The notes under the pieces are model-generated. The model was not told where the DNA came from, did no database searches, and saw only the letters and a list, made by a program, of their open reading frames with translations. Both the position numbers and the translations under genes were made by a program. Shown one piece after another: positions 10,010 to 27,110 of a stretch of DNA of 56,970 nucleotides; positions within the stretch are counted from its first letter, which is position 1; every line of letters starts with the position of its first letter. Origin of the DNA: Macrostomum lignano (Eukaryota); the NCBI GenBank assembly GCA_002269645.1, contig NIVC01002328.1, positions 1 through 56,970 of the forward strand, given 5' to 3'.

Positions 10010-12058
10010 TTATATTTGAGTAGGAGGTTTTTCCAAATAAGCAGTAGAGGGAAAAACATAACCAAACGACGTACTACCACATACAACTGCACCACGAATA
10101 AAATGTGCAGCATCCGCTCCACCAGTTCGAGCGCCAAAACCCATAAGGGTTCCAGATTTATCTAAAGTTCCCCAAGTTCCACTATCATATGTGAAAACGT
10201 TCTGTCCAATGAGGGTAAAAGAATCACCAGCAACATTGTATGACTGTAATCGGTACCAAACCCTTTGATTTAAAATATTAACTTCAAATAAATGCCAATC
10301 GCCGTTATCAATATTAGCATAGGCTACAGTTTGATCCGCATCACTACTAACATCGTTACGAACCGTAGATCCGTCTGATTTTTTATTACTCCAAACAACT
10401 CCAAACCTATCAGTCCACTCACTAGCAAACACTATCAGCCCGGCGTCGGTTGATAATCCAGTTCCAAATTCCGATGTTGGACGTTGGTGACAGTATGCAT
10501 AAAACCAAACCGCATCTGCACCATCTCCTGTAGCATTAGCAACTCGGAAAAAGAAAGACGCAGATATATTTTGAAAATGTGTGAAATTGAATTGTAAAGC
10601 ACCACTTACTCCAGAAGTTTCACGAGTAATTCTAGCGCCGTTTTGATAATCGATATAAGAAGCATCGCTAATTAAAGAACCGACTGGATATATATCTCCG
10701 GCGGTTGTTGGATTTTGATATCCAGACCAATTGCAAATTACTGGTTCGAACAAGGCCGCATCAATAGCAGGTATTCCATCCAATTTATTTTTATCGCTTC
10801 CAGACATTCTACCATTTGATGTTGGAGTAGCTAGCTGATCTACGTACGCTCGCGGAACTGCAGAAAGTATTTGAGTTGGCCAATTAAGATCTTGAATTTC
10901 AACACGGTGTTCAAATAATTGTATTTGACGAACCTCGATAGGTTGTGTACCGGTACCACCAGTTGGGAAGAATACGCTATAATATTTCCAAAAATTAGTC
11001 GTTAAATTAGATAGAGCAAATGATGTTGCTTGAACTGGTGATCCCGACGTAGTTAATGTCGTCCATGAATCGGTAGCAACATTTTTTGCGCGAACCGACC
11101 ACCCCGAGGGTATCTCAATTGTTTCACTGCCTGTAATTCTTAATTCAAATATTCTTCTATTATAACCTAAAAATTCAAATTGAATTTCCATATTGGTTGT
11201 GGTTCCGGTATTTGGTGACCATTGCGTCGCAAGGCTTCCATCTCCAACTCGAAAAGCTGTGTTGCCATTTTCAGATGCTGTAAGAACAACATCAGGATTT
11301 GAAGTATTTGATGTAAGCGGCGTGGTAAAAATATCGGCGTCAGTTGCATTAGCTCGCTCGTTTACTTGGCCTAGAGTTACCGAGTCTGCATTCTCTGTTC
11401 CAAATAATAAATTTGTTAATTTAAAATTATTCATATTAATATTACCACTACGAGTGGCAACTTGATTATCGACATAGTTCTTATCAACCACTGAATCACT
11501 AGTTGTAATTGAAACATTTATAATTCGGTTGTTGCTCATATCTAGGTTTCCGGTTGCGGTGGTTTGAACATAACGTGAATCAGAATCAGTTCGAGAATAA
11601 GAATCAGTTACATCTCTTTTTAAATTTAATCCATTATCAACTTCGGTTTTGGTATAAGAATCGGCTACGTTCCGTTTCAAATTTAATGAATTATCAACTT
11701 CGGTTTTGGTATAAGAATCGGCTACGTTCCGTTTCAAATTTAATGAATTATCAACCTCTGTTTTGGTATAGGAATCGGCTGTATTGCGTTTCAGATTTAG
11801 TGAATTATCAACTTCGGTTTTGGTATAGGAATCGGCTACGTTCCGTTTCAGATTTAGTGAATCATCGATTTGAGTTTTGGTATAGGAATCTGCAACGTTT
11901 CTTTTTAAATTTAATTTATTATCAATATCAGTTTTTTTATAACCTTCATCCTCATTAATATATCGATTATCTCCGAATGTAACACTGATGCCACCAGATG
12001 TGCCACCGCCACCACTACTTGTTGTTCCGTTCCATGAGGGTGTTCCAGAAAATAACAT
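10010..12058 (-). CDS. Fibre/spike receptor-binding protein (682 aa)
   Basis: Six 19-aa YTKTEVDNSLNLKRNVADS repeats; LDMSNNRIINV..KNYVD shaft motifs; discoidin-like domain; ATPTSNGRMSGSDKNKLDGI; C-terminal L-lectin/ConA-like domain. Confidence 0.75.
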   Translation of the reverse strand: MLFSGTPSWNGTTSSGGGGTSGGISVTFGDNRYINEDEGYKKTDIDNKLNLKRNVADSYTKTQIDDSLNLKRNVADSYTKTEVDNSLNLKRNTADSYTKTEVDNSLNLKRNVADSYTKTEVDNSLNLKRNVADSYTKTEVDNGLNLKRDVTDSYSRTDSDSRYVQTTATGNLDMSNNRIINVSITTSDSVVDKNYVDNQVATRSGNINMNNFKLTNLLFGTENADSVTLGQVNERANATDADIFTTPLTSNTSNPDVVLTASENGNTAFRVGDGSLATQWSPNTGTTTNMEIQFEFLGYNRRIFELRITGSETIEIPSGWSVRAKNVATDSWTTLTTSGSPVQATSFALSNLTTNFWKYYSVFFPTGGTGTQPIEVRQIQLFEHRVEIQDLNWPTQILSAVPRAYVDQLATPTSNGRMSGSDKNKLDGIPAIDAALFEPVICNWSGYQNPTTAGDIYPVGSLISDASYIDYQNGARITRETSGVSGALQFNFTHFQNISASFFFRVANATGDGADAVWFYAYCHQRPTSEFGTGLSTDAGLIVFASEWTDRFGVVWSNKKSDGSTVRNDVSSDADQTVAYANIDNGDWHLFEVNILNQRVWYRLQSYNVAGDSFTLIGQNVFTYDSGTWGTLDKSGTLMGFGARTGGADAAHFIRGAVVCGSTSFGYVFPSTAYLEKPPTQI

Positions 12059-12068
12059 TTTTTACTGT

Positions 12069-12686
12069 CTATTTTATAGAATCTAAAATACCCCTAAAGT
12101 CTTCGGGTCTTTCCTTCGAGTTATTAATTTTATATAAAAAATACAACGCCGCTTGCCCGCAATAACTTTTGTCAAAGGTTTGAAATTGTTCGTGATAATC
12201 TCCACATAAACGATTTTTAGTATGATTAAATTTATCTTTTATTTCCTGTAACGGAGGAAGCGCGTATGAATCAAAAAAATAAACAAGTTTTGGTTTTGAA
12301 TAAACTGCTGACCAATGAACACCGTTTTCTTTTGTTGTTTCAATATTAACAATGAAAGATCCATATCTTGGTAAGTCTTTTATCTCATCCCGCATAACAC
12401 ATCTAAATGGTTTTATTTTTAACTGCCGCGCCCAATTTGTTAATTCGATATTGCTTGTTGTGTCTGTTCCATATCGTTGTTTGAATATATGCCAATTCAT
12501 GGTCATTTTATGTTCCTGAAAAACTTTGGTTTTAGTTAGTTTAGTAGGTGTGGGTTTTAACAATTCCTTTCTTATTTTATCAGCTTGTAACTGCCTTAAT
12601 TTTGCTAGTTCTAGTTCGTAATTATCTTCAGCTTTTTTAACTTTTTCTGATTGTTTTTTTAGTAAATTATTATTATTATTACCCAT
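12069..12686 (-). CDS. Adenain-like cysteine maturation protease
   Basis: NGVHWSA (His), YFFDSYA (Asp), QTFDKSYCG (Gln/Cys). Confidence 0.92.
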   Translation of the reverse strand: MGNNNNNLLKKQSEKVKKAEDNYELELAKLRQLQADKIRKELLKPTPTKLTKTKVFQEHKMTMNWHIFKQRYGTDTTSNIELTNWARQLKIKPFRCVMRDEIKDLPRYGSFIVNIETTKENGVHWSAVYSKPKLVYFFDSYALPPLQEIKDKFNHTKNRLCGDYHEQFQTFDKSYCGQAALYFLYKINNSKERPEDFRGILDSIK

Positions 12687-12699
12687 TTTTACTATAGGA

Positions 12700-13485
12700 T
12701 TAAACCTGTTTTATACGTAAAATTACTGTTATTGATTGCCCACCAAAACTTATTAATCTATCGCTTTCATCTACAATCCTAATATAAATTGATTGAATAG
12801 TATATTGATTTAAAGGATAATATATTGGGGTTTGGGGTGCAACAATCATTTTCTCTCCAATTGGAACAGCAAGAAACGGGATTGAATAAATAATTCCACG
12901 TTGAACCAAAACCCCATTATCATCTGTTATATAACCGCCGTTTGATATGTCGGTTGTTATATTAATTGTATTAACACCGCCCTCAATGTTTCCCACGGTA
13001 TCACCGGTGCTTGATGCGGTAACTATTCGGGAATTAAATCCAAGTATTGTTCTGAGTGAATTTGCAATTGTAAAATCAACCTGATATCCGGTTCCTAGTG
13101 ATAGGGTGAATCGGCCAGAAGGTAAATCAACGCCAATAACAATCGCGCCCGCTACCCAATCACCATTAGTTGTTAATTCTCCTTCTATATAAGCATTCAA
13201 ATCGGTATAACTATAAGCTCCCGGATTAACGCTAAACGTTGTCCAATTGGCTCCGGAATCTTTAGAATATCTAAATTGATTATTTGTTGCATTAATTAAT
13301 TGAGGCATGTTAAAAACTGAAAACATTATTAAACCAATTTGATAACTTAGGCTTTGATTGAGTTGTAACGGATCGCGCAATATAATCCTTTGTTCGCTGG
13401 TTGTCATTATAAACTGTAGGGTTGTACTAAACTTTGAATTAGTTCGATCTACCAATTGTTTTATAGCGTCTAAATTTGCTGCCAT
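12700..13485 (-). CDS. Minor capsid protein (penton, single jelly roll)
   Basis: Start at TATAAAAATG 13485; N.T..NN.F.YS, PGAYS..DLN, IY.L....I.SI.IRIVDE..R.I.F pattern; position between ATPase and protease. Confidence 0.85.
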   Translation of the reverse strand: MAANLDAIKQLVDRTNSKFSTTLQFIMTTSEQRIILRDPLQLNQSLSYQIGLIMFSVFNMPQLINATNNQFRYSKDSGANWTTFSVNPGAYSYTDLNAYIEGELTTNGDWVAGAIVIGVDLPSGRFTLSLGTGYQVDFTIANSLRTILGFNSRIVTASSTGDTVGNIEGGVNTINITTDISNGGYITDDNGVLVQRGIIYSIPFLAVPIGEKMIVAPQTPIYYPLNQYTIQSIYIRIVDESDRLISFGGQSITVILRIKQV

Positions 13486-13550
13486 TTTTATAGTGGGGAA
13501 TAATAGCATCGGACTTCGTCCGCGAACCATAGGTTCGATCGGCACGCAGA

Positions 13551-14348
13551 CTACGTCTGATCCTCGTCCTCATTATCTTCTTTTATCAAATTTGTTAAGA
13601 TTCGATTTTTTCTTTCTAACCTAGGGTTGATATATATGTGTTTGTATTGACTATCATCCCAAATTTTTTTACACATACTTTTAAATGGTTTTGTATCCAA
13701 CCCAGGATTAAATCTCGCGTGTATATTTTGTAGATCATAGTTATCTAAATCAAACATTACACAACAGCTAGCATTCTTTTTTATAATCGATTCTAATTCT
13801 CTAAAGGATTGAGTAAGATAAAAAGCTCCAATTCCATCTCCTCTACCACTAACAAAAATTTCCTTTTGCAATTCTTGATCTCCATCATTAATACAATCAT
13901 CAAATATAATTAGTGTTTTATCATTTTTTGGGATTTTGTCGTAAGTTAATCGGTTTGATATTGTAATTGTTGGGGGGTTATTGTCCATATTTTCTGGATC
14001 GAACCTTTGGTTCGCGGACTCCGTCCGACCTTCTGCCATTTTTTTACATAAATCCTCAATGTCATTTAGGTTAAATCGCGGGTCATCATCGTCCTCATAT
14101 TGCTCATATGCTCTTAACATTCTAAACAAGATTTCTTTTTTTAATTTGTTTTTTAATCCATGTTTAAGAAATTCATAATATTTTATTCTAGGTTTATTAG
14201 TATAAATTATTAAATTATTATAGTCTAACATTCCATCGGTTGTTAGCAGATCATAAACAAAGTGGGTTTTTCCTTTGCCAGATCCGCCAATTACTAAACA
14301 AAGAAAAGGATCGTTTGGAAATATTTTATTATGTTTTGCTTTTACCAT
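13551..14348 (-). CDS. A32/FtsK-HerA genome packaging ATPase
   Basis: Walker A GGSGKGKT, Walker B LIIFDD, SGRGDGI..FYLTQS. Confidence 0.93.
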   Translation of the reverse strand: MVKAKHNKIFPNDPFLCLVIGGSGKGKTHFVYDLLTTDGMLDYNNLIIYTNKPRIKYYEFLKHGLKNKLKKEILFRMLRAYEQYEDDDDPRFNLNDIEDLCKKMAEGRTESANQRFDPENMDNNPPTITISNRLTYDKIPKNDKTLIIFDDCINDGDQELQKEIFVSGRGDGIGAFYLTQSFRELESIIKKNASCCVMFDLDNYDLQNIHARFNPGLDTKPFKSMCKKIWDDSQYKHIYINPRLERKNRILTNLIKEDNEDEDQT

Positions 14349-14367
14349 TTTTAAATATAAAATTTAA

Positions 14368-15831
14368 CTATTTTTTATCTACTGGTACCTTATTAGCAAC
14401 GGTACCATCTGCTAGAGCATATGCCATATATTCCTCTAGAAGCAATACGTGGGCGTCTAGTGCCTGATTGCCGGTTTTATTAATCTCTAACATATAATTC
14501 AAACCAAGGTTGGCTACATTTTCTTTCTGTGCGGTTAGATCAAAAACAACCACTGGATGAATGTTTAGAAACTCCGTGGGTGTGTACTGAGGAACAGCAT
14601 ACGCTTCATTTTTGACATAATCCTGATAATATTTTATAAAATCATTAACATCATTATTTGCTGTATTTAGATTTAGTACGGTTTTAACTGGATAATATTG
14701 ATCATCAACCTGCAGGCGGATATTCTGAACATTAAACTCGTTAATAGCTGTAACCTCGTTGTCTGTTGCGGTGGCTGCCTGAGCTGCAACGGCTCCTGAT
14801 TGAAGCCAATATAAATCTCCATTTGATCTTTTACTGTTTCTATTTGTTATTTTAAACCATACAAAAATATATCTAGCACGACGTTCTGAAGTAGTTAGCT
14901 GCCACTGGAAATAATCCTGGTTATTATTAATTGTTCGCATAAAGTGCCGCCGATTCAAATAAAAGATTTCCTGATCGCGCATTATCTGCTTATTTATGTA
15001 TTCTAATAGCGGTGCCGTTACCTCGAATTTTGGGACGACTAATTGAATTGATGCTATACGAATTGCGATATCGGTTGAAATCCTAGGCTGATATCCACCA
15101 GATATTTGCAACTGAATACCAAATTTTAATCCTTTCCATACCCGATTTGGTGAGAAGAACCCAAAGAGCGGAAAGATTGAAAAGTCTTGCTCATATGCCG
15201 TTGCCGTGGTTAATACCGCGACTGGGAATTTATTCTGACGATCTATAAAACCAGTGTTAATATCTTTTGTGTTAGTCATTGCAGTTACAACTGGAACGAT
15301 ATTGGTATTAAGATAAGCTATAAGAGCTGCGGTATCTGCGCCGGCTGCATTTTGTACATTAGGGAAAACTACTGCTTGTCCATTGCCCTTATCCGGCATC
15401 CAACCAACATTATCACCAACCTGTTTTGATAAATAAGTATAATTTAAATGTTTCAAAACTCCATTAATCTCAGCTGGGTTTGTTGATGTCTCAACAACGG
15501 CTCCATTAACTGTTAGTTGAGCTTGGGAAAAACATTTATAAAACCAATCATTTTCTATAATAATTCCAGAACGGTCTGCGATATCACCGGCTACAAGAGC
15601 GGTTCCATCGTTTCTGGTATACAACCATCTAACACGGAAAAAGGCATTTTTAAGATCTAATATGCTGTCGGTTGCCCCAATGTCAAAAGCTACAGTTCCA
15701 GTAGTAAAATTGTTTGAGTTATCACTTGTTGGTAGGGTAGCATTTAAATCTCTTGCCCTGATCTCATTAATATACTGTCGATGCTTTTTAAAATGAAATT
15801 TGTCACTCCATATAGTTTTTGTTTCGGCCAT
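14368..15831 (-). CDS. Double jelly-roll major capsid protein (487 aa)
   Basis: FSQAQLTVNG..VE, RYIFVWF, RLQVDDQYYP, VVFDLT motifs; size and synteny typical of Polinton MCP. Confidence 0.85.
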   Translation of the reverse strand: MAETKTIWSDKFHFKKHRQYINEIRARDLNATLPTSDNSNNFTTGTVAFDIGATDSILDLKNAFFRVRWLYTRNDGTALVAGDIADRSGIIIENDWFYKCFSQAQLTVNGAVVETSTNPAEINGVLKHLNYTYLSKQVGDNVGWMPDKGNGQAVVFPNVQNAAGADTAALIAYLNTNIVPVVTAMTNTKDINTGFIDRQNKFPVAVLTTATAYEQDFSIFPLFGFFSPNRVWKGLKFGIQLQISGGYQPRISTDIAIRIASIQLVVPKFEVTAPLLEYINKQIMRDQEIFYLNRRHFMRTINNNQDYFQWQLTTSERRARYIFVWFKITNRNSKRSNGDLYWLQSGAVAAQAATATDNEVTAINEFNVQNIRLQVDDQYYPVKTVLNLNTANNDVNDFIKYYQDYVKNEAYAVPQYTPTEFLNIHPVVVFDLTAQKENVANLGLNYMLEINKTGNQALDAHVLLLEEYMAYALADGTVANKVPVDKK

Positions 15832-15865
15832 TTTTTTAAGTTAAAAAAGTTTTTTATATTAAAAA

Positions 15866-16537
15866 ATGAGTCAATTTATGGACGTTGATGGAGAATTAGC
15901 GATTTATAGAGAGAAGCAAAAATATTCTGATTTTGTTAGAAATTTACAAAAAAGAAAGTTAGGAATACAACTAGCTGGTGATAGATTTGCTGCCCCTTTT
16001 GTTAATCCTATTACGGGCAAACTTAGTGAACTAGAAAAAACAGATAAAGATCTTCTTGAAAAAATTGCCAAGAATACCGAGCCAAAAGAGGATGAAATTT
16101 TAGATGAGCCGCCTACTTATGATGTTGATCAAGCCCTATTGAGAGTTGCTGAGATTAGACGTGCAGAACGGGATGGGGTTGTTGAATATCCGAGAGCTGC
16201 ACCACAAAGTATTGCTGTGACAGATTTAGGTAATGATGACTACCGAATTGGTGGGGTTGATAAAAATCGGAATGATCTATATAGAGAACTGGGCGGAGCA
16301 TATAATATTATTATGAACCCGAGGGTAAAGTTTAACCCTGATTTATATACTAGAGATGAATTAGTAAGTGCTAAAATTTTTTACGATGAGTTAGGAGTAA
16401 GAGCTGCTAAAAATACCAGCTTGTATAAAAGGATTGTTGATTCTATAAATAACAAACCGGCGGTTGGTGAAGGATTTAAAACTCCGCGAAAACTTGTTTT
16501 AGCTGCCGCGAAAGCTGCTGGACATACAGGTGTTTAA
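15866..16537 (+). CDS. Conserved Polinton protein ending GEGF...AAGHTGV (223 aa)
   Basis: Intact ORF; orthologue at 22905-23604. Confidence 0.65.
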   Translation: MSQFMDVDGELAIYREKQKYSDFVRNLQKRKLGIQLAGDRFAAPFVNPITGKLSELEKTDKDLLEKIAKNTEPKEDEILDEPPTYDVDQALLRVAEIRRAERDGVVEYPRAAPQSIAVTDLGNDDYRIGGVDKNRNDLYRELGGAYNIIMNPRVKFNPDLYTRDELVSAKIFYDELGVRAAKNTSLYKRIVDSINNKPAVGEGFKTPRKLVLAAAKAAGHTGV

Positions 16538-16557
16538 TTAAATTTATTTTTTATAAA

Positions 16558-17130
16558 ATGAATGAAACAAAAGTTTGTACTAAGTGTAAACAAGAAAAAC
16601 CAATGACTAAAGAATTTTTTTGTTGGAGAAATGATTCAAAAAATTTTAGAAATGAATGTAGATTATGTCATAATACTTCATCAACTATTTGGATGAAAAA
16701 CAATAAAGATAAATGGAATAAATATTGAAAGAATAAATATCACACCGATGAAAATTACAAAACTATTAATTTAATTAGAAATAGAATAAAAAGGTCATTA
16801 TCAACCTTTAATGATAATGATTATATCTCATATCTTGGTTGCACAAAAGAATTCTTTTTTGATTGGCTAAATTTTACAAGAAATTATTATGTGTCAAAAG
16901 ATTATAATGGTGCTTTACATATTGATCATTTCATTCCCGCTTCATCGTTTATTTACAAGGACGAAGATCAGATGAAAAAGTCTGAACATTGGACAAATAA
17001 AAGATACTTAACTAGTGTAGATAATTGCTATAAAAAAGTTAAGCAACCAACCATCGAAGAATTTGCAAAACAATTGGTGCTATCGTGTATTTTTAAGGCT
17101 ATTAAAAATGAGCAATCAATTAGTATTTGA
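16558..17130 (+). CDS. HNH endonuclease with N-terminal Zn finger (190 codons; in-frame TGA at 16726-16728)
   Basis: Manual translation: MNETKVCTKC...CRLC...YLGC...LHIDHFIPAS...HWTNKRYL...DN..K. Confidence 0.8.
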
Positions 17131-18685
17131 AGGAGGATTTTTAGATGTTCAAAAAGGATTAACAAGCTTACCACCAATATTTACTACTGGGAGGTATACG
17201 GGTGAGCTACACCTGCCATCAATGAACTTCACAGGTTATCCCGTGGCCTGAGTGGTAGAAGCAAAGCTACTGCTAGTCACTATTAGTGGCGATGTCTCCA
17301 AATTGCGTGAAACCCGTCATACAGCTTCAAGTACCACTTCAATTGAGAAATCTTTTGAAGGAACAGAGGTAACTCCTCTTCCCAATGGTAAAAAGCTTGA
17401 AGACATGGTGGCAATGCGCAGCCAAGCTCCTAAGTATTTTAAATATAAGGAGAAGGTTCAGAGAGCAGACGGAGATGGGCGGTAATTATCGCCGCTTAAG
17501 GTGTGCTCCAGCCTCATTCGAAAGATTGGGGGTAAACTACCCGGCACTCGTTTGGATTTAAGATTAAATCCTGACAATACTCCAAAAGCTGATTCAATTC
17601 CAATAAATGGGATTGATTGGTTAGCATACTATCACGACTTAGCATATAGAGATGCTGACAAGAACCCTCCCGAAGAAGCGTTAAGATTAAAACATGAAGC
17701 CAATCAAAAAATGATTCAAGGATTAGATAACTTACAAGGCTTATCAGTAGGCCAGAGATTAACTAGGTGGATGGTTAAAAAGATTCTACAATCTAAAGTT
17801 AAATTTGGTTTAGGAATTAATTACAACCAACATGGTAATAATTGTGTCGAATGTTTGTTATTAAGTGGTAGTGGGCTAAGTTATAATAAGGCTAAGGTTC
17901 TTCATAAAGAATACCGAAAACCTAAATTTTATAGAAAAATCATGAACTTCAAAAAGAATGAAATTTGGTATGCTGATTTAATGTCGATGCCAAATGATAA
18001 AGGATATAAATATATTTTAACAATATTAGATGGTTTTACTCGCTACGCGTGGGCTGTTCCTTTAAAATCCAAAAAGGGAGAGGTGGTTGCTAGTGCTTTT
18101 AGAAGCATTGGAGAAAAAAGTGAAAGGTTGTGTGTTGACGAAGGAAAAGAATTTTACAATCCTCACATGTATAAATTGTATCATTTTGAAAAAGGACAAG
18201 AAAGGAAAAAGGACGCGAATGGGGAGTATATTAATAAAATTTATTCTATTTATGGAGAGAGTAAAAACGCATTAATAGAAAGATTTAATAGAACTTTAGG
18301 TAAGAAATTATGGTTTCAGTTTAGTCTTAATGGTAACCAAAAGTGGGTAAAAATATTACCAGACGTAGTGAAAGATTATAACAATTCATATCATTCAGCT
18401 ATAAAGATGACTCCTCAACAAGCTTATAACAATCCTGAAAATGTTAGGGTTACTTTTGGAGAATTTGAAAAAAAGAAAACTAAAGGTTTTAAAGTTGGTG
18501 ATTCTGTTTATATCTATAAATGGAAAGATAAGTTTGAAAAGGGAAGAAAAGGATATTGGAAAATAAGTGAGAAATTTACTATCAGTAAAGTTTTAAATAC
18601 AAATCCCACCACCTATATCATTGCTGATAAGGATGGTGACGAAATATTGGGTTCATTTTATGAAAACCAGCTAATGCCAGCTTAA
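17108..18685 (+). CDS. Parvoviral-type PLA2 fused to RVE integrase; exons 17108-17236 and 17540-18685 (424 aa spliced)
   Basis: Splicing restores NFTG|PGTRL...YYHDLAY; integrase WYADL / CVDEGKEF / IERFNRTL (DDE) and YNNSYHSAIKMTP. Confidence 0.9.
17237..17539 (+). ncRNA. Group IC1 self-splicing intron (303 nt)
   Basis: P AAUUGCGUGAAA, Q AAUGCGCAGC, R GUUCAGAGAGCAG, S AAGGUGUGCUCC; P7 GAGCA/UGCUC; P1 CAGGU/GCCUG with U-G wobble; P3 UGUCUCC/GGAGAUG; P5abc with GAAA loop and A-rich bulge; L9 GAAA. Confidence 0.92.
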
Positions 18686-18695
18686 GTTCAATCCG

Positions 18696-18920
18696 TTACT
18701 TAAGGCAACAAGGTAGTAAATTTTTTATAACAAACAAAAACAATATTATTACTATTATTGTTACTAATATTATTATTGACATTTGTTCAACAGTTATCAA
18801 ACTTAAATTATCATTAAGGTCATTAATTGGTACATTTCCGATATAGGAATAATTTACCTTCATTTTTTTATATATATTTTTAACAATAAATGTTGTTTCT
18901 GTTATAGAGTAATAGTTCAT
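18696..18920 (-). CDS. Small single-TM protein (74 aa)
   Basis: Hydrophobic C-terminal helix; orthologue at 26220-26438. Confidence 0.6.
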   Translation of the reverse strand: MNYYSITETTFIVKNIYKKMKVNYSYIGNVPINDLNDNLSLITVEQMSIIILVTIIVIILFLFVIKNLLPCCLK

Positions 18921-18923
18921 TTT

Positions 18924-19238
18924 TTACATAAAAATTTCAATTTCGCTCTCTGAATCACTAGTTTCATATGAGCTATTTGTTGAGTTTGAATCATCTGAAC
19001 GAACCTCCCAATCATCTGAATTTAAATAATCTCCAAGTTGAAATATTAACTCACCCTCTTGTTCTAGATCATACAACCCATCCAACTCTAACGGATAAAG
19101 TTTTAGTTCATGCTTATCGTCATATTTTAGATAAACTTCATCAATTATTCCATTCAAAATATGCTGTTTTATTATCTCTGAATTTTTAGCAACAGTCTCA
19201 AAAGTATCACTAATTGAAAAGGTGTAAACGCGGTTCAT
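18924..19238 (-). CDS. Small acidic hypothetical protein (104 aa)
   Basis: ATG at the inner edge of the TIR; near-identical orthologue at 26395-26709. Confidence 0.65.
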   Translation of the reverse strand: MNRVYTFSISDTFETVAKNSEIIKQHILNGIIDEVYLKYDDKHELKLYPLELDGLYDLEQEGELIFQLGDYLNSDDWEVRSDDSNSTNSSYETSDSESEIEIFM

Positions 19239-19600
19239 TTTTAGTAACAGAAAAAGACCCTACGCGCCTGCGGCGCGGCCTGGGGTTATAAAGTAGTAGT
19301 AGGTAAAAGTACGCTTCTAGATCAGACCTATTGAAAATGATGATTGAAGGGCTATTAATGGGGGGACGCGAGGGGATTGTTATTGATGATTTGGGAGTGT
19401 TATTGGTGATTTGGGAGAGTTAGTGGTGATTTGTGTTGTTTTGTGGTGTTGGGGGTGTTGGTGGGAGGTAGTGTGTTTAAGGGGGGTAAAGGGTGTTTAG
19501 ATGTGTTTTTTTAGTACCCCCTCGTGTCCCCCCACTAGCCCTTCAAATCAGCATGTTAAATAGGGGTTCTGGGGCTAGAAGCGTACTTTTACCTACTACT
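19237..19600 (-). repeat. Right terminal inverted repeat of Polinton copy 1
   Basis: Reverse complement of 2067-2430; ends CCTACTACT. Confidence 0.95.
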
Positions 19601-19820
19601 AGCATCCCAACTCAAAGTCATTTTAAGTTATTGAAAAACTTTTTGTTTTTGTTAGTTTATACGTTGATTGTTTTAACAACTCCTTTCTCGTTTTTTCTGC
19701 TTGAAGTTGTTTTAATTTTTTTAATTCAGTTTCATATATTTTTTGGCTTTTTGAACACTATCCGATTGTTTTTTATCTTAGCTTCGATGTTATTACCCAT
19801 TTTAACCTGACTAAACCGGA

Positions 19821-20598
19821 TTAAACTTGTTTTATTCGTAAAATTACTGTTATTGATTGTCCACCGAAACTTATCAACCTTGTTGGTTTCGTCTACAATT
19901 CTAATATAAATCGATTGAATATTATATTGATTTAAATGGGTTTGGGGTGCAACAATCATTTTCTCTCCAATTAGAACAGCCAGAAATGGAATTGAATATA
20001 TTATTCCACGCTGAACCAAAAATCCATTGTCATCTGTTATATAACCACCGTTTGAGATATCAGTTGTAATATTTATTGTATTAACTCAACCCTCAATGTT
20101 TCCTACGGTATCGCCCGTGTTTGATGGGGTAACAATTCGGGAATTAAATCCTAATATGGTTCTAAGTGAATTTGCAATTGTAAAATCAACTTGGTATCCA
20201 GATCCTAGTGATAGAGTGAATCTGCCGGATGGTAAATAAACTCCTGTAACAATTGCGCCTGCTACCGAATCACCATTAGCTATTAATTCTCCTTCTATAT
20301 ACGCATTCAAATCGGTATAACTATATGCCCCCGGATTAACACTAAATGTCGTCCAATTTGCTCCAGAATCTTTAGAATATCTAAATTGATTATTTCTCTC
20401 AATAATTAACTGTGGCATATTAAAAACCGAAAATAAAATTAATCCAACTTGATAACTTAGAGTTTGATCGAGTTGTAACGGATCACGCAATTGAATCTGT
20501 TGTTCGCTTGTTGTCATTATAAACTGTAAGGTTGTGCTAAATTTCTAACTTGTTCTATCAACCAATTGTTTTATGGTGGTTAAGTTGTTTGATGCCAT
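19821..20598 (-). pseudogene. Penton, copy 2
   Basis: Fragments 20086-20517 and 19732-20019 match 12700-13485. Confidence 0.88.
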
Positions 20599-20608
20599 TT
20601 TTATATTG

Positions 20609-21369
20609 TTAAAATTCCGCGTCCTCATCCTCATTCTCATGTAATATATATGTTAAAATTCTATTGTTGCGTTCCAATCTTGAATTAATATATATGTGTT
20701 TGTATTGACTATCATCCCAAATTTTTTACACATACTTTTAAATTGTTTTGTTTCCCTTCCGGGATTAAATCTCCTATGTATATTCTGCAAACCATAATCA
20801 TCTAAATAAAAAATTATACAACAACTTGCATTCTTTTTTATAATTGAATCTAATTCCCTAAATGATTGAGTAAGATAAAATGCCCCAATTCCATCTCCTC
20901 TACCGCTAATAAAAATTTCTTTTTGCAATTCTTGATCACCATCATTAATACAATCATCAAATATTATTAGGGTTTTTATCATGTTTTGGAATTCGATCAT
21001 AAATTATTTTTTTTTGAATTGCTGGTGATTTTTCGCAGATGTTATTTGGATCTAGTGCCATTCTTCTAACCAAATCCTCTATGTCATCAAGTGAGAATTT
21101 TGGATTATCATCATCCTCGTATTGCTCATATGCTCTTAACATTCCAAATAAAGTATCTTTTTTATTTTTTGTTTTAATCCATGTTTAAGAAGTTCATAAT
21201 ATTTAATTTGTGGTTTATTTGTGTACACTATTAAATTGTTATAATCTAACATTCCTTCGGTTGTTAATAGGTCATAAACAAAATGTGTTTTGCCTTTACC
21301 CGATCATCCAATTACTAGACAAAGAAAAGGATCGTTTGGAAATATTGGATTGTGTTTTGCTTTAACCAT
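20609..21369 (-). pseudogene. Packaging ATPase, copy 2
   Basis: LIIFDDCINDGDQELQKEIF fragment; frameshifted. Confidence 0.88.
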
Positions 21370-21417
21370 TTTTAAGGAAACATTTACAATGGTGCGATGG
21401 TCGGAGACCTGCACCGC

Positions 21418-22889
21418 CTACAGCGGGGCGTCCTGAATAACAGTTCCATCGGCTCGTGCAATTGATAGATATTCCTCGAGAAATAATACGTGTGCATCAA
21501 CCACCTGATTTCCTGTTTTATTAATCTCTAACATATAATTCAAACCAGTGTTGGAGCGATTCTCTTTTTGTGCGGTTAGATCAAACACAACAACTGGGTG
21601 AATGTTTAGGAACTAGGTGGGAGTATATTGGGGAGTAGCGTATGCCTCATTTTTAACATAATCCTGATAATATTTGATTAAATCATTAACGTCGTTGTTA
21701 AGAATGTTTAGATTAAGGGGGTCTTTAACCGGATAATATTGGTCATCAACTTGGAGCCGAATGTTGTTCATATTAAAAGCTGTAATTGCTGCGGCTCCAG
21801 TATCAGTTGCATCGGCTGCTATGGCGGCTTAGATTGAATCCAATATAAATCACTGTTGGCTCTTTTAGCATTTGTATTAGTAATTTTAAACCAAACAAAT
21901 GCATATCTCACACGGCGTTTTGATGTGAGAATCTGCCATTGGAATGAATCCTGATTGTTATTAATTGTTCGCATAAAGTGGCGGCGATTCAAATAAAATA
22001 TTTCCTGATCCTTCATTAGCTGCTCATTGATATAAGATAGAAGTGGGGCTGTTACATCAATTGTTGGAACAACTAGCTGGATTAAAGCTATTCGGACGGC
22101 TAAATCGGTTGATGCTGCGGCTCCAAAAAGTATTCTACCCTGATACCCACCAGATATTTGCAACTGCACACTAAACCTAAGTCCCTTCCAAACGCGATTT
22201 GGTGAGAATAAACCAAATAGTGGGAAAATTGAAAAGTCCTGCTCATATGCGGTTGCAGTTGTTAAAACAGCTTCTGGGAATTTATTTTGTCTGTCAATGA
22301 ATCCGGTATTAATATTTTTTATATTACTTATTTGATTAAGAACTCCTTTAATAGCATCTAAATCAGCACTAATTACAGATACTGTGGCGGCTGCTATGTC
22401 TCTATTTGGGGAAAGGTGGCTGTTTGTCCATTACCCTTATCCGGCATCCATCCAACATTATCACCAACTTGTTTTGTTAAATAGGTATAATTTAAATGTT
22501 TCAAAACTCCATTAATCTCTGCTGGATTTGTAGATGTCTCAACCTCAGCTCCATTAATTTTTAGTTGGGCTTGGGAAAAACATTTATAAAACCAATCATT
22601 CTCGATGACACAATGCCAGCACGATTCGGTATATCTGCTGCGACGAGTGCGGTGCCATCATTTCTAGTATATAACCATCTAACTCTGAAAAACGCATGTC
22701 TCATATCCAATATGGTGTTGGTTGCGCCAACATCAGAAGTAACAGTTCCATTAGTAAAGTTGTTTGTATTGTCACTTGTTGGATTGGTATAATTTAAATC
22801 TGTTGCCCTAACCTCATTAATATATTGGCGTCATGGCGTGGTTTTTTGAAGTGGAACCTATCACTCCATCTAGTTTTTGTTTCGGCCAT
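21418..22889 (-). pseudogene. Major capsid protein, copy 2
   Basis: QEIFYLNRRHFMRTINNNQD match; frameshifted. Confidence 0.88.
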
Positions 22890-22904
22890 TTTTATAAGTT
22901 AAAA

Positions 22905-23604
22905 ATGAGTCAATTTATGGATATTGGTGGAGAAATGGCTCTTTATAAAGCTAATAAAAATATTGGATTTTGTTAGAGATTAAAAAAAAGAAAGTTGGGT
23001 TTCGAAATAGCTGGTGAGAAATTTGCTGCTCCTTTTGTTAATCCAATTGTTGGGAAAATTGGTGATCTAACACAAACTTTTGGAACTTTTGAAAAACTTT
23101 TGGAAAAGATTGCTGAGAATACAACTCCAAAAGAGAATGATGGTGTTGATATAGAGGATGAGCCGCCTGTTTATGAGGTGGATCAAGCAATATTGCGAGT
23201 TGCAGAGATTAGGAGGCAAGAAGTGGGCGATCGGGAAGATTTTCCGAGCGGTTCCGCAAAGTATTTCTGTGACAGAATTGCCTAATGATAATTTTCAAAT
23301 TGGCAGGACTGTAAAAAACAGGAATGAACTATATCGGGATTTAGGTGGGGCATTTAATATTGTTACAAATCCTAGAGTAAAGTTTAATCCTGATTTATAT
23401 GACAAAGATGAATTAGTAAGCGCAAAAAAAATTTATGGTGAATTGGGAGAAAGAGCTGTTAAAAACACTAGTTTGTATAAACGTATTGTTAAATCAATAG
23501 AGGCGAAAAGATCCGTTGGATTTAAAACTCCGCGAAAACTTGTTTTGGCTGCTGCTAAAGCTGCTGGACACACTGGTATTAATTATTTTTTTTTAAATGG
23601 ATGA
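22905..23604 (+). pseudogene. Orthologue of 15866-16537
   Basis: FKTPRKLVLAAAKAAGHTG shared. Confidence 0.85.
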
Positions 23605-24683
23605 TACGATAAAGTCCTGTCTTTGTAAACCCATTGATTATAAAACTGGATGTGATAGAATATTGAATAAAATATTTCAAGATGAATTAATAATTGCAAA
23701 TCGTATTAAAACGATTCAGATGCATCTTGGATCTCTTTATGAAGGCTACCGGACATTTGCCCTCCGGCATTTGCCCTCCGGACATTTGCCCTCCGGCATT
23801 TCCCCTCCGGACATTTGCCCTCGAGGACATTTGCCCTCGGGGACATTTGCCCTCCGGACATTTGCCCTCCGGACATTTGCCCTCCGGACATTTCCCCTCT
23901 GGAAAAGTACAGGTAAGGCTGGGGATAGGGTAGGGCGCGGGTATATATTGCTTACTAGAAAAGGATGAGTTGTTGGCTGGAGAAGAACCTGATGGATGCA
24001 AGAGGCGGGAGGATGAGGTTGGTGCTGGAGGAACGACGGGTGGGTACAGGAGGAGGTGAGGTGAGTAATGTGCGAGGGGGTAAATTTGCAGAGGGCAAAT
24101 GTGCGGAGGGGAAATGTCCGGAGGGCAAATGTCCGGAGGGCAAATGTCCGGAGGGCAAATGTCCCCGAGGGCAAATGTCCCCGAGGGGAAATGTCCGGAG
24201 GGCAAATGTCCGGAGGGGAAATGTCCCGGAGGGCAAATGTCCGGAGGGCAAACGCCGCCGAGGGGAAGTGCCGGAGGGCAAGTGCCGGAGGGGAAGTGCC
24301 GGAGGGCAAATGTCCGGAAGCGCTTTATGAATTATTAGCTATTAAACATTTTGGTTTTGAAAAAGTAAAGAAAATTGATTTAGTACATAATGATCGTAAA
24401 GTTGCGTTAGAGTCGAAATCTTCTGATAATACCGATAGTTCTTCAAGCCGATTTAGAAATATTCAAAAGTTGTTGGAGTTTAAAAATATTAATCCTGAAT
24501 TTGATTTGTATTATTTTTGCATTAATAACACTAAAAACCCAATACAAAAAGAATTTGATAATGCTGTTACCTTTAACTGGGGAATTTGCTTTAATTTTTT
24601 TGTATGGTGATAAATATTTGGAAATTATTAAATTGATAGAAGATTGTTTTTTAAGCATTAAAAATGAACTAAATTGTGTATGA
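23597..24683 (+). pseudogene. PD-(D/E)xK restriction-like endonuclease (Eco47II-like), interrupted by a MITE and a frameshift near 24570
   Basis: After removing the MITE: IQMHLGSLYELLAIKHFGFEKVKKIDLVHNDRKVALESKSSDNTDSSSSRFRNIQKL...LTGEFALIFLYG; family assignment is from motif recall (ExKxxxNTxxSSS). Confidence 0.62.
23744..24322. mobile_element. Foldback/MULE-type MITE (579 bp) with 9-bp TSD
   Basis: TSD CTTTATGAA at 23735-23743 and 24323-24331; inverted arms made of 15-bp GGACATTTGCCCTCC tandem units. Confidence 0.9.
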
Positions 24684-26244
24684 AGGTGGATTGTTGGATA
24701 TTCAGAAAGGATTAACAAGCTTACCACCAATATTTACTTGTGGGAAATATACAAATGAATCGCATATTCCGGCTATTCGTTTGCAGGTTACTCGTGGCCT
24801 GAGTGGTAGAAGCAAAGCTACTGCTAGTCACTATTTGTGGCGACACCTTCAAATTGCGTGAAAGCCGTCATACAGCTTCAAGTACCACTTCAATTGAGAA
24901 ATCTTTTAAAGGAACAGAGGTAACTCTCTTCCCACTGGTAAAAAGCTTGAAGACAAGGTGGCAATGCGCAGCCAAGCTCCTAAGTTGATAATTCAGTATG
25001 GAGAAGGTTCAGAGAGCAGACGGAAGTGGATGGTAATTTAGCTACTTAAGGTGTGCTCCAGCCTCTATCGAAAGACAGAGCGTAAACTGCCGGGGACTCG
25101 GTTAGATTTGAGATTAAATCCTGATGACACACCAAAAGCTGATTCAATTCCCATCAACGGTATTGATTGGTTAGCATATTATCATGACTTAGCATACAGA
25201 AATGCCGACAAGAATTCTCCTGAGGAAGCATTAAGATTAAAGCATGAAGCTGATCGAAAGATGATTGAGGGATTAGATAATTTACAGGGATTATCGGTAA
25301 GCCAAAGATTAACTCAATGGGTGGTTAAAAAGATTCTGCAATCTAAAGTTAAATTTGGTTTAGGAATTAATTACAATCAACATGGAAATAATTGTGTTGA
25401 CTGTCTGTTATTACTCATCTGTGGATTAAGTTCTGATGAGGCAAAAACACTTCATAAAGAATACCGAAAACCGAAATTTTACCGAAAAATCATGAACTTC
25501 AAAAAGAATGAAATTTGGTATGCTAACTTAATGTCGATGCCGAATGACAGAGGATATAAGTATATTTTAACTATATTAGATGGTTTTACTCGATATGCGC
25601 GTGGGCTATTCCATTGAAATCCAAAAAAGGTGAAGTTGTTGCTGCTGCTTTTAGAAGTATTGGGGAGAAAAGCGAGCGTTTATGTGTTGATGAAGGAAAA
25701 GAATTTTACAATCCTCATATGTATAAATTATATCATTTTGAGAAAGGAAAAGAAAGGAAAAAGGACGCAAGCGGTGAGTATATCAATAAGATTTATTCTA
25801 TTTATGGCGAAAGCAAAAACGCGTTAATAGAGAGATTTAATAGAACTTTGGGGAAGAAATTGTGGTTTCAGTTCAGTCTTAACGGTAACCAAATGTGGGT
25901 AAAAAATATTACCAGATGTAGTAAAAGATTATAATAATTCATATCATTCGGCGATAAATATGACTCCACAACAAGCTTATAACAATCCTGAAAATGTTAA
26001 AGTTACTTTTAGGGAAGTTGAAAAAAATAAAAAGAAATTTTTTAAAGTTGGTGATCAAGTATATATTTATAAATGGAAAGATAAATTTGAAAAAGGTCGA
26101 AAAGGCAACTGGAAGATTAGTGAGAAATTCATTGTAAGTAAAGTTTTAAATACAAATCCTACAACTTATATCATTGCCGATAAAGATGGTCAAGAAATAT
26201 TAGGATCATTTTATGAGAATCAATTACTTAAGGCAACAAGGTAA
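24664..26244 (+). pseudogene. PLA2-integrase, copy 2 (intron-containing, degraded)
   Basis: Matches 17108-18685; premature TAA at codon 3 and several frameshifts. Confidence 0.88.
24789..25089 (+). ncRNA. Group IC1 intron, copy 2 (301 nt)
   Basis: Same insertion site (GCA GGT|CCG GGG); P/Q/R/S conserved; 11-nt receptor CCUAAG...UAUGG; terminal omega-G at 25089. Confidence 0.92.
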
Positions 26245-26709
26245 TAAATTTTTATAACAAACAAAAACAATATTATTACTATTATTGTTACTAAAATAAT
26301 TATTGACATTTGTTCAACTGTTATCAAGCTTACATTTTCATTAAGTTCATTAACTGTTACATTACCAATGTAGGAATAATTTAACTTCATTTTTTTACAT
26401 AAAAATTTCACTTCGATTGTCTGAATCACTAGTTTCATATGAACTATTTGTTGACTCAGAATCGATTGATCGCATCTCCCAATCGTCTGAATTTAAATAA
26501 TCTTCAAGTTGAAATATTAACTCACACTCTTGTTCAAAATCGTATAAACCATCCAACTCTAGCGGATAAAGTTTTAGTTCCTGCCCATCGTCGTATTTTA
26601 AATAAACTTCATCTATTATTCCATTCAATATATGCTGTTTTATTATCTCTGAATTCTTAGCAACAGTTTCAAAAGTATCGCTTACAGAAAAGGTGTAAAC
26701 TCGGTTCAT
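26220..26709 (-). CDS. Copy 2 orthologues of the small TM and acidic terminal genes
   Basis: ORFs 26220-26438 and 26395-26709 match 18696-19238. Confidence 0.7.
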
Positions 26710-27110
26710 TTTTTGTAACAGAAAAAAGCCTTTTGTGCCCCAAGCGCCTGCGGCGCGGGCGGGGGTTAGAAAGAGTTGTGGGTGTTGGAAGTGTTGGAAG
26801 AGTTAGTAAGTGTTGGTTGTGTAGTAGTAGGTAAAAGTACGCGTATAGGACTGTGCACCTATTAAACATACGATTTGAAGGTCTTGTGGGGGGTACTAGG
26901 GGGTTAGATTCAGATTGTGTTTTTGGTTTTTTTCGATTGTTGGGGATGATTGGAAATGTTTATTTGTGTTTATTGTTTTTTTTTCAATTGTTGGGGAGAT
27001 TAGATGTGTTTATTTGTGTTTTTTAAGTTTCCCCCTAGTACCTCCCACCAGACCTTCAAATCGTATGTTTAATAGGTGCTCTCAGGGATAGACTCGTACT
27101 TTTACCTACT
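26708..27110 (-). repeat. Right TIR of Polinton copy 2 (self-palindromic 26823-27110)
   Basis: AGTAGTAGGTAAAAGTACG ... GTACTTTTACCTACT with long inverted arms. Confidence 0.85.

Follow-up and report, generated by a model that had tools for sequence, protein, structure and literature searches.

Maverick/Polinton elements integrated in the genome of Macrostomum lignano carry a gene for a nuclease that, judged from sequence comparisons, probably serves as the homing endonuclease of a Polinton group I intron. We give a probability of about 0.6 to the reading in which it is a methylase-less, Eco47II/EcoO109I-like type IIP enzyme that most likely cuts GGNCC. For the fuller account, in which a type IIP enzyme with a 5-bp site lost its methylase and became an intron homing endonuclease because the virus had purged that site except at a Gly-Pro hidden by the intron, we consider the odds to be even. 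Intron homing and viral restriction are both known kinds of system here; their pairing via site avoidance seems to be new. Long targets are usually considered a requirement for homing endonucleases, as is a methylase for restriction enzymes, and this element seems to dispense with both, its short site being made unique within its own small genome. If this is correct, restriction, site avoidance and intron homing would be joined in one testable unit, the retention of a group I intron would bring a concrete benefit, and Polintons would be bringing group I introns to the nuclear genome of an animal.

A decayed nuclease gene in a pair of Polintons

The window analysed here, the whole stretch of 56,970 nt, contains two Maverick/Polinton copies, element 1 and element 2, that are 75–81% alike where they can be aligned. 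Element 1 (2067–19600, no strand assigned) has terminal inverted repeats and encodes a pPolB, a protease, capsids, an A32 ATPase and a PLA2-integrase, whose rve integrase has a PLA2-like part at its N terminus. Its classification as a Maverick/Polinton rests on the terminal inverted repeats, on Pfam matches to rve and Pox_A32, and on a pPolB family recognized via sister copies; the capsid and protease names are ones that we assume from motif and layout. PLA2 genes are also carried by adintoviruses (PMC8502044). The pPolB (5001–7007) contains an endonuclease VII-like insert (PF02945, E 5e-8) that recalls the HNH insert reported in the pPolBs of nematodes and oomycetes (10.1101/2023.08.22.554363).

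Element 2 (19604–27110, likewise without strand) is the right half of a second copy. Its start abuts the right end of element 1 at 19600–19604, within its own protease region, which suggests nested insertion or recombination at this junction. Between 27090 and 53350 the window is dense in tandem arrays with 11–29-bp units, and the long frames there are repeat artefacts. The 764-Mb assembly contains numerous Wnt genes, which marks the host as an animal. Several genes lie on two to four contigs of the assembly, so haplotypes are duplicated in it, copy counts are inflated and copies are not independent of one another. A search of the whole assembly for Pox_A32 gave no match and is thus unusable for an element census.

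The nuclease gene of element 2 starts at 23597 and its last stop lies at 24681–24683. A MITE-like insertion of 579 bp (23744–24322, no strand assigned) separates its 5′ piece (23597–23743, + strand) from a second part (24323–24683, + strand) that holds the catalytic core, in which the ID..ExK and NTD-SSS motifs are both found, and a C-terminal piece past a frameshift near 24570–24580. The insertion has terminal inverted repeats and 15-bp subrepeats and is flanked by 9-bp direct repeats (23735–23743 and 24323–24331), a target duplication length that we take to indicate a Mutator-like insertion. The middle piece of the gene has 84 matches across the assembly, with uninterrupted frames of 166–177 aa at nine of the 12 matching loci examined, and a sister copy without the insertion has the same frameshift as the window copy. 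Because natural uninterrupted copies and this insertion-free sister occur in the same assembly, the pieces within 23597–24683 belong to one gene, as the preliminary description had supposed when it joined them across the insertion and recommended a look for intact copies elsewhere in the genome. The copy in the window has decayed into a pseudogene. At one motif position it departs from a residue shared by all 16 aligned homologues, and a Pfam scan of its three pieces taken separately gave no match. All family analyses used natural uninterrupted copies.

An Eco47II-like protein with no companion methylase

RE_Eco47II (PF09553) is the sole Pfam match of all three intact copies (E 4e-5 to 4e-4), with scores of 20.6–23.8 bits that lie below the family's gathering cut-off of 25.9 bits. 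Close homologues (P0004, P0013 and P0015) exceed this cut-off, and 36 of 40 scanned homologues match RE_Eco47II. The nuclease is Eco47II-like and divergent, outside formal PF09553 membership. The closest clusters in a language-model Atlas are an unnamed viral cluster, an Eco47II cluster and an EcoO109I cluster (0.93–0.94). Searches of PDB sequences with the nuclease returned nothing relevant, NCBIfam had no match for it or for the HNH-like protein described below, and tblastn against plasmids and phages gave no match.

The predicted structure of the 167-aa nuclease (pLDDT 89.4) has EcoO109I as its best fold match among 48,161 chains (Z 9.8, rmsd 3.6, 166 aligned; the next match has 6.6). EcoO109I covers the 167-aa model end to end, and an extra DNA-binding domain is absent. 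Foldseek on the model gave E 2.4e-4 and also found AvaII and the DdmD nuclease domain. Across 16 homologues the E and K of ExK are invariant and the D is nearly invariant. As modelled, the nuclease belongs to the PD-(D/E)XK superfamily, with a predicted restriction-type α/β core that holds the D and ExK positions. The earlier assignment to the Eco47II family thus stands as a statement of kinship, through the only Pfam match and the best fold, and has to be softened as a statement of membership.

Within each of the two Polinton families introduced below, pairwise dN/dS is mostly 0.13–0.3, with higher values (0.35–0.57) for L025 and L020, which are partial or divergent frames. That the gene is a non-cutting relic, be it a DNA-binding protein, an intron maturase or a hitch-hiker, with the site loss described below left over from past selection, is very improbable. 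Many copies, that of the window among them, are broken, and at most loci of the window's own Polinton family the intron is present without the nuclease, as such a relic would allow; but catalytic-type D and ExK positions are retained across homologues, dN/dS is far below 1, and no GGNCC has been regained in any of the nuclease-bearing element DNA counted.

Eco47II recognizes GGNCC, EcoO109I RGGNCCY and AvaII GGWCC. Sau96I is a homologue of Eco47II (PMC3045609) and serves as a GGNCC enzyme (PMC9465063). From this kinship and from the site avoidance set out below we infer that the Polinton nuclease would cleave GGNCC.

No partner methylase had been visible in the two elements of the window, with the caveat that the left half of element 2 is missing, and wider searches uphold this. 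The C5 methylase family PF00145 has 12 matches in the whole assembly and none on nuclease-bearing contigs; two giant-virus-type methylase probes gave no match in 100 stretches plus the window; and a Pfam scan of 19 element-1 frames found no adenine methylase. Another nuclease-bearing copy, GGNCC-free in both halves, is also without a C5 methylase match, which resolves the caveat. The cognate methyltransferase of a type II restriction-modification system is therefore lacking, for the C5 type across the assembly's nuclease-bearing contigs and for the adenine type among the element-1 frames.

Relatives elsewhere do have methylases. At six of ten metagenomic loci, distant homologues adjoin a C5-methylase-like frame, one of them confirmed as dcm, and one nuclease homologue forms a fusion with a methylase. 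Giant-virus-like nucleases beside C5 methylases belong to the sister group. Scans of viral contigs found none and then one giant-virus locus with the nuclease, and none and then one locus with the PLA2-integrase. GGNCC counts in methylase-bearing giant-virus contigs are inconsistent (67 versus 37.5; 36 versus 130.6) and were excluded from inference about specificity. A 19-kb giant-virus-like contig with a nuclease–methylase pair (L034) shows strong avoidance of CCNGG (4 versus 73) and GCNGC (5 versus 19) and none of GGNCC.

GGNCC avoidance and the Gly-Pro intron

Downstream of the nuclease, the PLA2-like/integrase gene of element 2 is interrupted by a group I intron (24789–25089, + strand, 301 nt, ending in G). 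The degraded exon 1 (24664–24788, +) overlaps the last nuclease codons and ends in a Gly codon, and exon 2 (25090–26244, +) is frameshifted. Element 1 has a group I intron at the same Gly|Pro position (17237–17539, +, 303 nt, ending in A). Both introns score above the gathering score of 50 for Rfam RF00028, with 53.5 bits in element 2 and 63.1 bits in element 1, and scores of 72.7–88.9 bits are reached in five of five stretches of a second Polinton family (family B; that of the window is family A) and in the JGI metagenomic contig L033. The intron splits the Gly and Pro codons of a conserved G-P-G in the PLA2-like domain, and its boundary is fixed by intron-less alleles with continuous Gly-Pro codons. 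As Gly is GGN and Pro is CCN, this codon pair always spells GGNCC.

A predicted P1 helix with a U-G wobble, formed by the exon end and the intron start, folds in element 1 and L033 (z −1.75 and −1.98); the input fragment from element 2 was too short for this fold. A terminal G is found in the element 2 intron, in all 12 family B introns and in L033, and a terminal A replaces it in 10 of 15 distinct family A introns, which counts against our preferred reading. These counts come from a survey of 41 rows, from which 11 false second matches and two repeated loci were removed and whose pattern itself required GGT and CC ends. The A-ending introns (window position 17539; L003, L004, L010, L012, L030, L031 and L057–L059) belong to copies whose exon-2 frames are long and open; such introns may be functional with an A at the end, or the splice site may have shifted. 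In the four of 22 runs compared, all contigs of uncertain kind, the intron showed no splice joint, and we place no weight on this. Some family A copies have a divergent intron core at the same position (L060:6426–6745 and L028:4357–4690), 79–83% alike over part of the intron only.

The nuclease gene occupies two positions relative to this intron. In family A it is free-standing, immediately upstream of exon 1, and in family B it lies within the intron, its frame continuing into the intron core; the gene is thus beside a self-splicing-type intron in the one family and inside it in the other. Contig L033 likewise encodes a nuclease inside an intron at the same Gly|Pro position, with a protein 54% identical, and eight metagenomic database homologues have intron-core-like tails (read by eye), among them a near-identical counterpart of the L033 protein. 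In a quick tree, family A falls among intron-encoded relatives (support 82–83) and the methylase-linked enzymes form part of the other main branch, which weakly suggests that the free-standing layout may derive from the intron-encoded one.

The slot upstream of exon 1 in family A has an alternative occupant, a CxxC/HNH-like gene, present with an internal stop in element 1 (16558–17130, +). Its HNH identity is a lead only (score 0.89). The gene also occurs at L044:5960–6529, and the Atlas clusters closest to it consist of unnamed viral proteins. By coordinates, the slot holds the HNH-like gene at 98 of 137 exon-2 loci (95 with intron spacing, three without the intron) and the nuclease at 37, all with intron spacing; two loci have neither gene. 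In family B the nuclease is present at 30 of 58 loci, 15 of which were inspected in sequence. The spacing is compatible with an intron at every nuclease locus, 37 in family A and 30 in family B, bar one inspected deletion copy that retains the intron ends. The first and last few codons are common to the nuclease and the HNH-like gene in family A, as if the two had been swapped as a cassette, and the HNH-like gene may be a competing free-standing homing endonuclease, perhaps one directed at alleles with the nuclease. It was rejected as the partner of the intron, being present in all three intron-less family A alleles.

The preliminary description had cast the nuclease as a virus-encoded weapon against DNA of the host, of competitors and of intron-less relatives. 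A solo restriction weapon that cuts host and competitor GGNCC, in the manner proposed for chlorovirus and marseillevirus restriction enzymes, with the intron shielding the Gly-Pro site and homing rare or incidental, is compatible with our preferred reading and, taken by itself, unlikely. Its appeal lies in the sister-group nucleases beside C5 methylases and the one fusion, in the abundance of GGNCC in host DNA (57 sites over 32 kb of flank), and in reports that viral restriction enzymes degrade host DNA or exclude competitors (PMC7019647, PMC7253447). It leaves unexplained, however, why family B and L033 encode the nuclease within the intron, and why the gene is exchanged with the HNH-like gene in the same family A slot, with shared first and last codons. 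This intron-encoded layout of family B and the metagenomic contig shifts the best reading from a general restriction weapon to a homing endonuclease; the link to intron-less relatives in the earlier proposal holds.

That link can be followed at the junction itself. Three intron-less family A alleles (two with GGTCC, one with GGCCC) and 18 inspected family B alleles (GGCCC) have none with the nuclease. The presumed GGNCC target is thus intact in all 21 inspected intact-junction alleles, with the nuclease in 0 of 21, and is split by the intron elsewhere. In family A alone the association is not significant (intron-less at 0 of 37 nuclease loci versus 3 of 98 HNH-like loci). The junction site is mostly GGCCC rather than the GGTCC originally named. 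It is the sole GGNCC in the element-aligned DNA of two intron-less family A copies and one of two sites in the third, and intron-less family B copies usually have one additional GGNCC upstream. Three further family B loci that lack the intron encode Gly-Gln-Gly, have no GGNCC and were considered as escape alleles; their shared flanks (97.6–99.8%) mark them as one duplicated insertion, and they were not counted.

The two elements of the window are free of GGNCC. Element 1 (17.5 kb) has 0 sites against 15.8 (order-2 Markov) or 10.7 (order-3) expected; the order-2 model over-predicts, host flank giving 51 observed against 84 expected, and scaled by this ratio element 1 still expects about 9–10. 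For element 2 the count is 0 against 6.2 (order-2) or 2.5 (order-3). GGWCC and GGSCC are the only 5-mers absent from both elements combined. The two elements are therefore site-free as first described, although avoidance extends to GGNCC as a whole and is not confined to GGTCC. At the protein level, the 4,793 codons of element 1 contain no Gly-Pro, where 9.2 would be expected. Its packaging ATPase (13551–14348) has the Walker A motif G-G-S-G-K-G-K-T, without the Gly-Pro that occurs in many such motifs, which is consistent with site avoidance shaping proteins.

The same absence extends across both families, which have different gene orders and about 23% capsid identity. GGNCC is missing from the element-aligned DNA of 16 of 16 nuclease stretches in family A and from 13 of 13 nuclease copies in family B (4.5–15.7 expected each), 29 in total. 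CCNGG reaches or exceeds its expected count in most family B nuclease copies but is also low in family A, at about 0.3–0.6 of expected. In one nuclease-bearing family A copy (L132:2385–6064) an unrelated polymerase-like region replaces the usual one, and this copy has GGNCC only at its edge. Long frames keep GGNCC in 20 of 20 stretches around other pPolB genes (4–16 sites, observed/expected about 0.3–1.6, GC 45–58%), most of these control families being GC-richer than the families studied and themselves mildly depleted. A third PLA2-integrase family without intron or nuclease has 28 sites against 27.9 expected at 44% GC, and an IMG/VR relative has 10 in 12.7 kb at 38% GC. Alleles without the nuclease are likewise poor in sites, with none in five of five family A stretches that have the HNH-like gene and the intron, and with one or two in intron-less copies of both families, so avoidance is family-wide.

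Avoidance on this scale argues for a short recognition site. The sites of homing endonucleases span 14–40 bp (PMC3315327), and the known enzymes require long targets so as not to be toxic to the host (PMC3943268), which counts against our preferred reading. In one alternative, the nuclease is a long-site homing endonuclease on a restriction fold, resembling I-Ssp6803I, and GGNCC loss is imposed from outside, for instance by a giant virus that infects the same cell and has an Eco47II-like restriction-modification pair. This would spare the host and account for site-poor alleles without the nuclease; homing endonucleases of the PD-(D/E)xK type exist (PMC3943268), and related nucleases do occur with a methylase on giant-virus-like contigs. 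We nonetheless consider it distinctly improbable, because other Polinton families in the same host keep GGNCC, family B copies with the nuclease have no site and those without it retain an extra upstream one, the flanks of the junction vary among intron-less alleles, and EcoO109I spans the whole 167-aa model with no additional DNA-binding domain.

For the homing reading we propose the following course. A giant-virus-type restriction enzyme would have shed its methylase and moved into a group I intron inserted at its own target, with self-protection coming from site avoidance instead of methylation. A genome of about 18 kb could purge a 5-bp site everywhere but at a required Gly-Pro; there the intron would remove the last site from the DNA and splicing would restore the Gly-Pro codons, so that the carrier could encode Gly-Pro without a GGNCC site. 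An intron-less relative in the same cell would be cut at the insertion site and nowhere, or almost nowhere, else, and its repair from an intron-bearing copy would spread intron and nuclease together. Site-rich host DNA would also be cut unless expression were confined to a lytic phase or a compartment. If true, this would imply a lytic, host-DNA-cutting phase and would be relevant to the question of whether the Polintons of animals are genuine lytic viruses.

Comparison with known systems

To our knowledge, group I introns in animal nuclear DNA are undocumented outside organelles, and a literature search on them found no paper. Nor did we find a report of the nuclease–intron pairing in the mostly openly available literature searched. 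The related papers (10.1101/2023.08.22.554363, PMC11296320, 10.64898/2026.10.13.758929, PMC12220804, PMC3045609, PMC8502044, PMC11131425, PMC2441816, PMC9465063, PMC7019647, PMC7253447, PMC3943268 and PMC3315327) jointly cover protist Polinton-like introns, suspected restriction-modification there, paired viral restriction enzymes and collaborative homing, and in their available portions none has this combination.

The nuclease resembles Eco47II/Sau96I (PF09553), EcoO109I (PDB 1WTD/1WTE) and AvaII (6S48) through its sole Pfam match and its whole-chain best fold. Compared with these, it is shorter (about 167 aa), scores below the cut-off, lacks a methylase, is tied to an intron and lies in an element integrated in an animal genome; a GGNCC cutter of 167 aa could be a compact reagent. 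With the restriction-modification pairs of giant viruses it shares the presence of a restriction-type nuclease in a virus of eukaryotes. The restriction enzymes of chloroviruses and marseilleviruses are always described beside a methylase in the available text of the sources (PMC7019647, PMC7253447), whereas the Polinton enzyme has site avoidance and an intron in the methylase's place.

I-Ssp6803I offers a likeness of another kind, a PD-(D/E)xK restriction fold encoded in a group I intron that interrupts its presumed target. It belongs to a bacterial tRNA intron and has a long target of about 23 bp, and we know of no genome-wide site avoidance in that system. It is not among the listed fold matches of our model.

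Polinton-like viruses of protists share the RF00028 introns; in the available portion of that report, the introns are limited to a small number of protist groups and lie in a short gene that precedes the capsid gene, and no endonuclease is assigned to them (PMC12220804). Collaborative homing by free-standing phage endonucleases has in common a nuclease gene that lies beside an intron and targets the intron-less allele (PMC11296320). In contrast to the phage systems, the intron-encoded and free-standing layouts stand here side by side in one host genome, and the weakly suggested path from intron-encoded to free-standing would be the reverse of the one proposed in the available portion of that work (PMC11296320).
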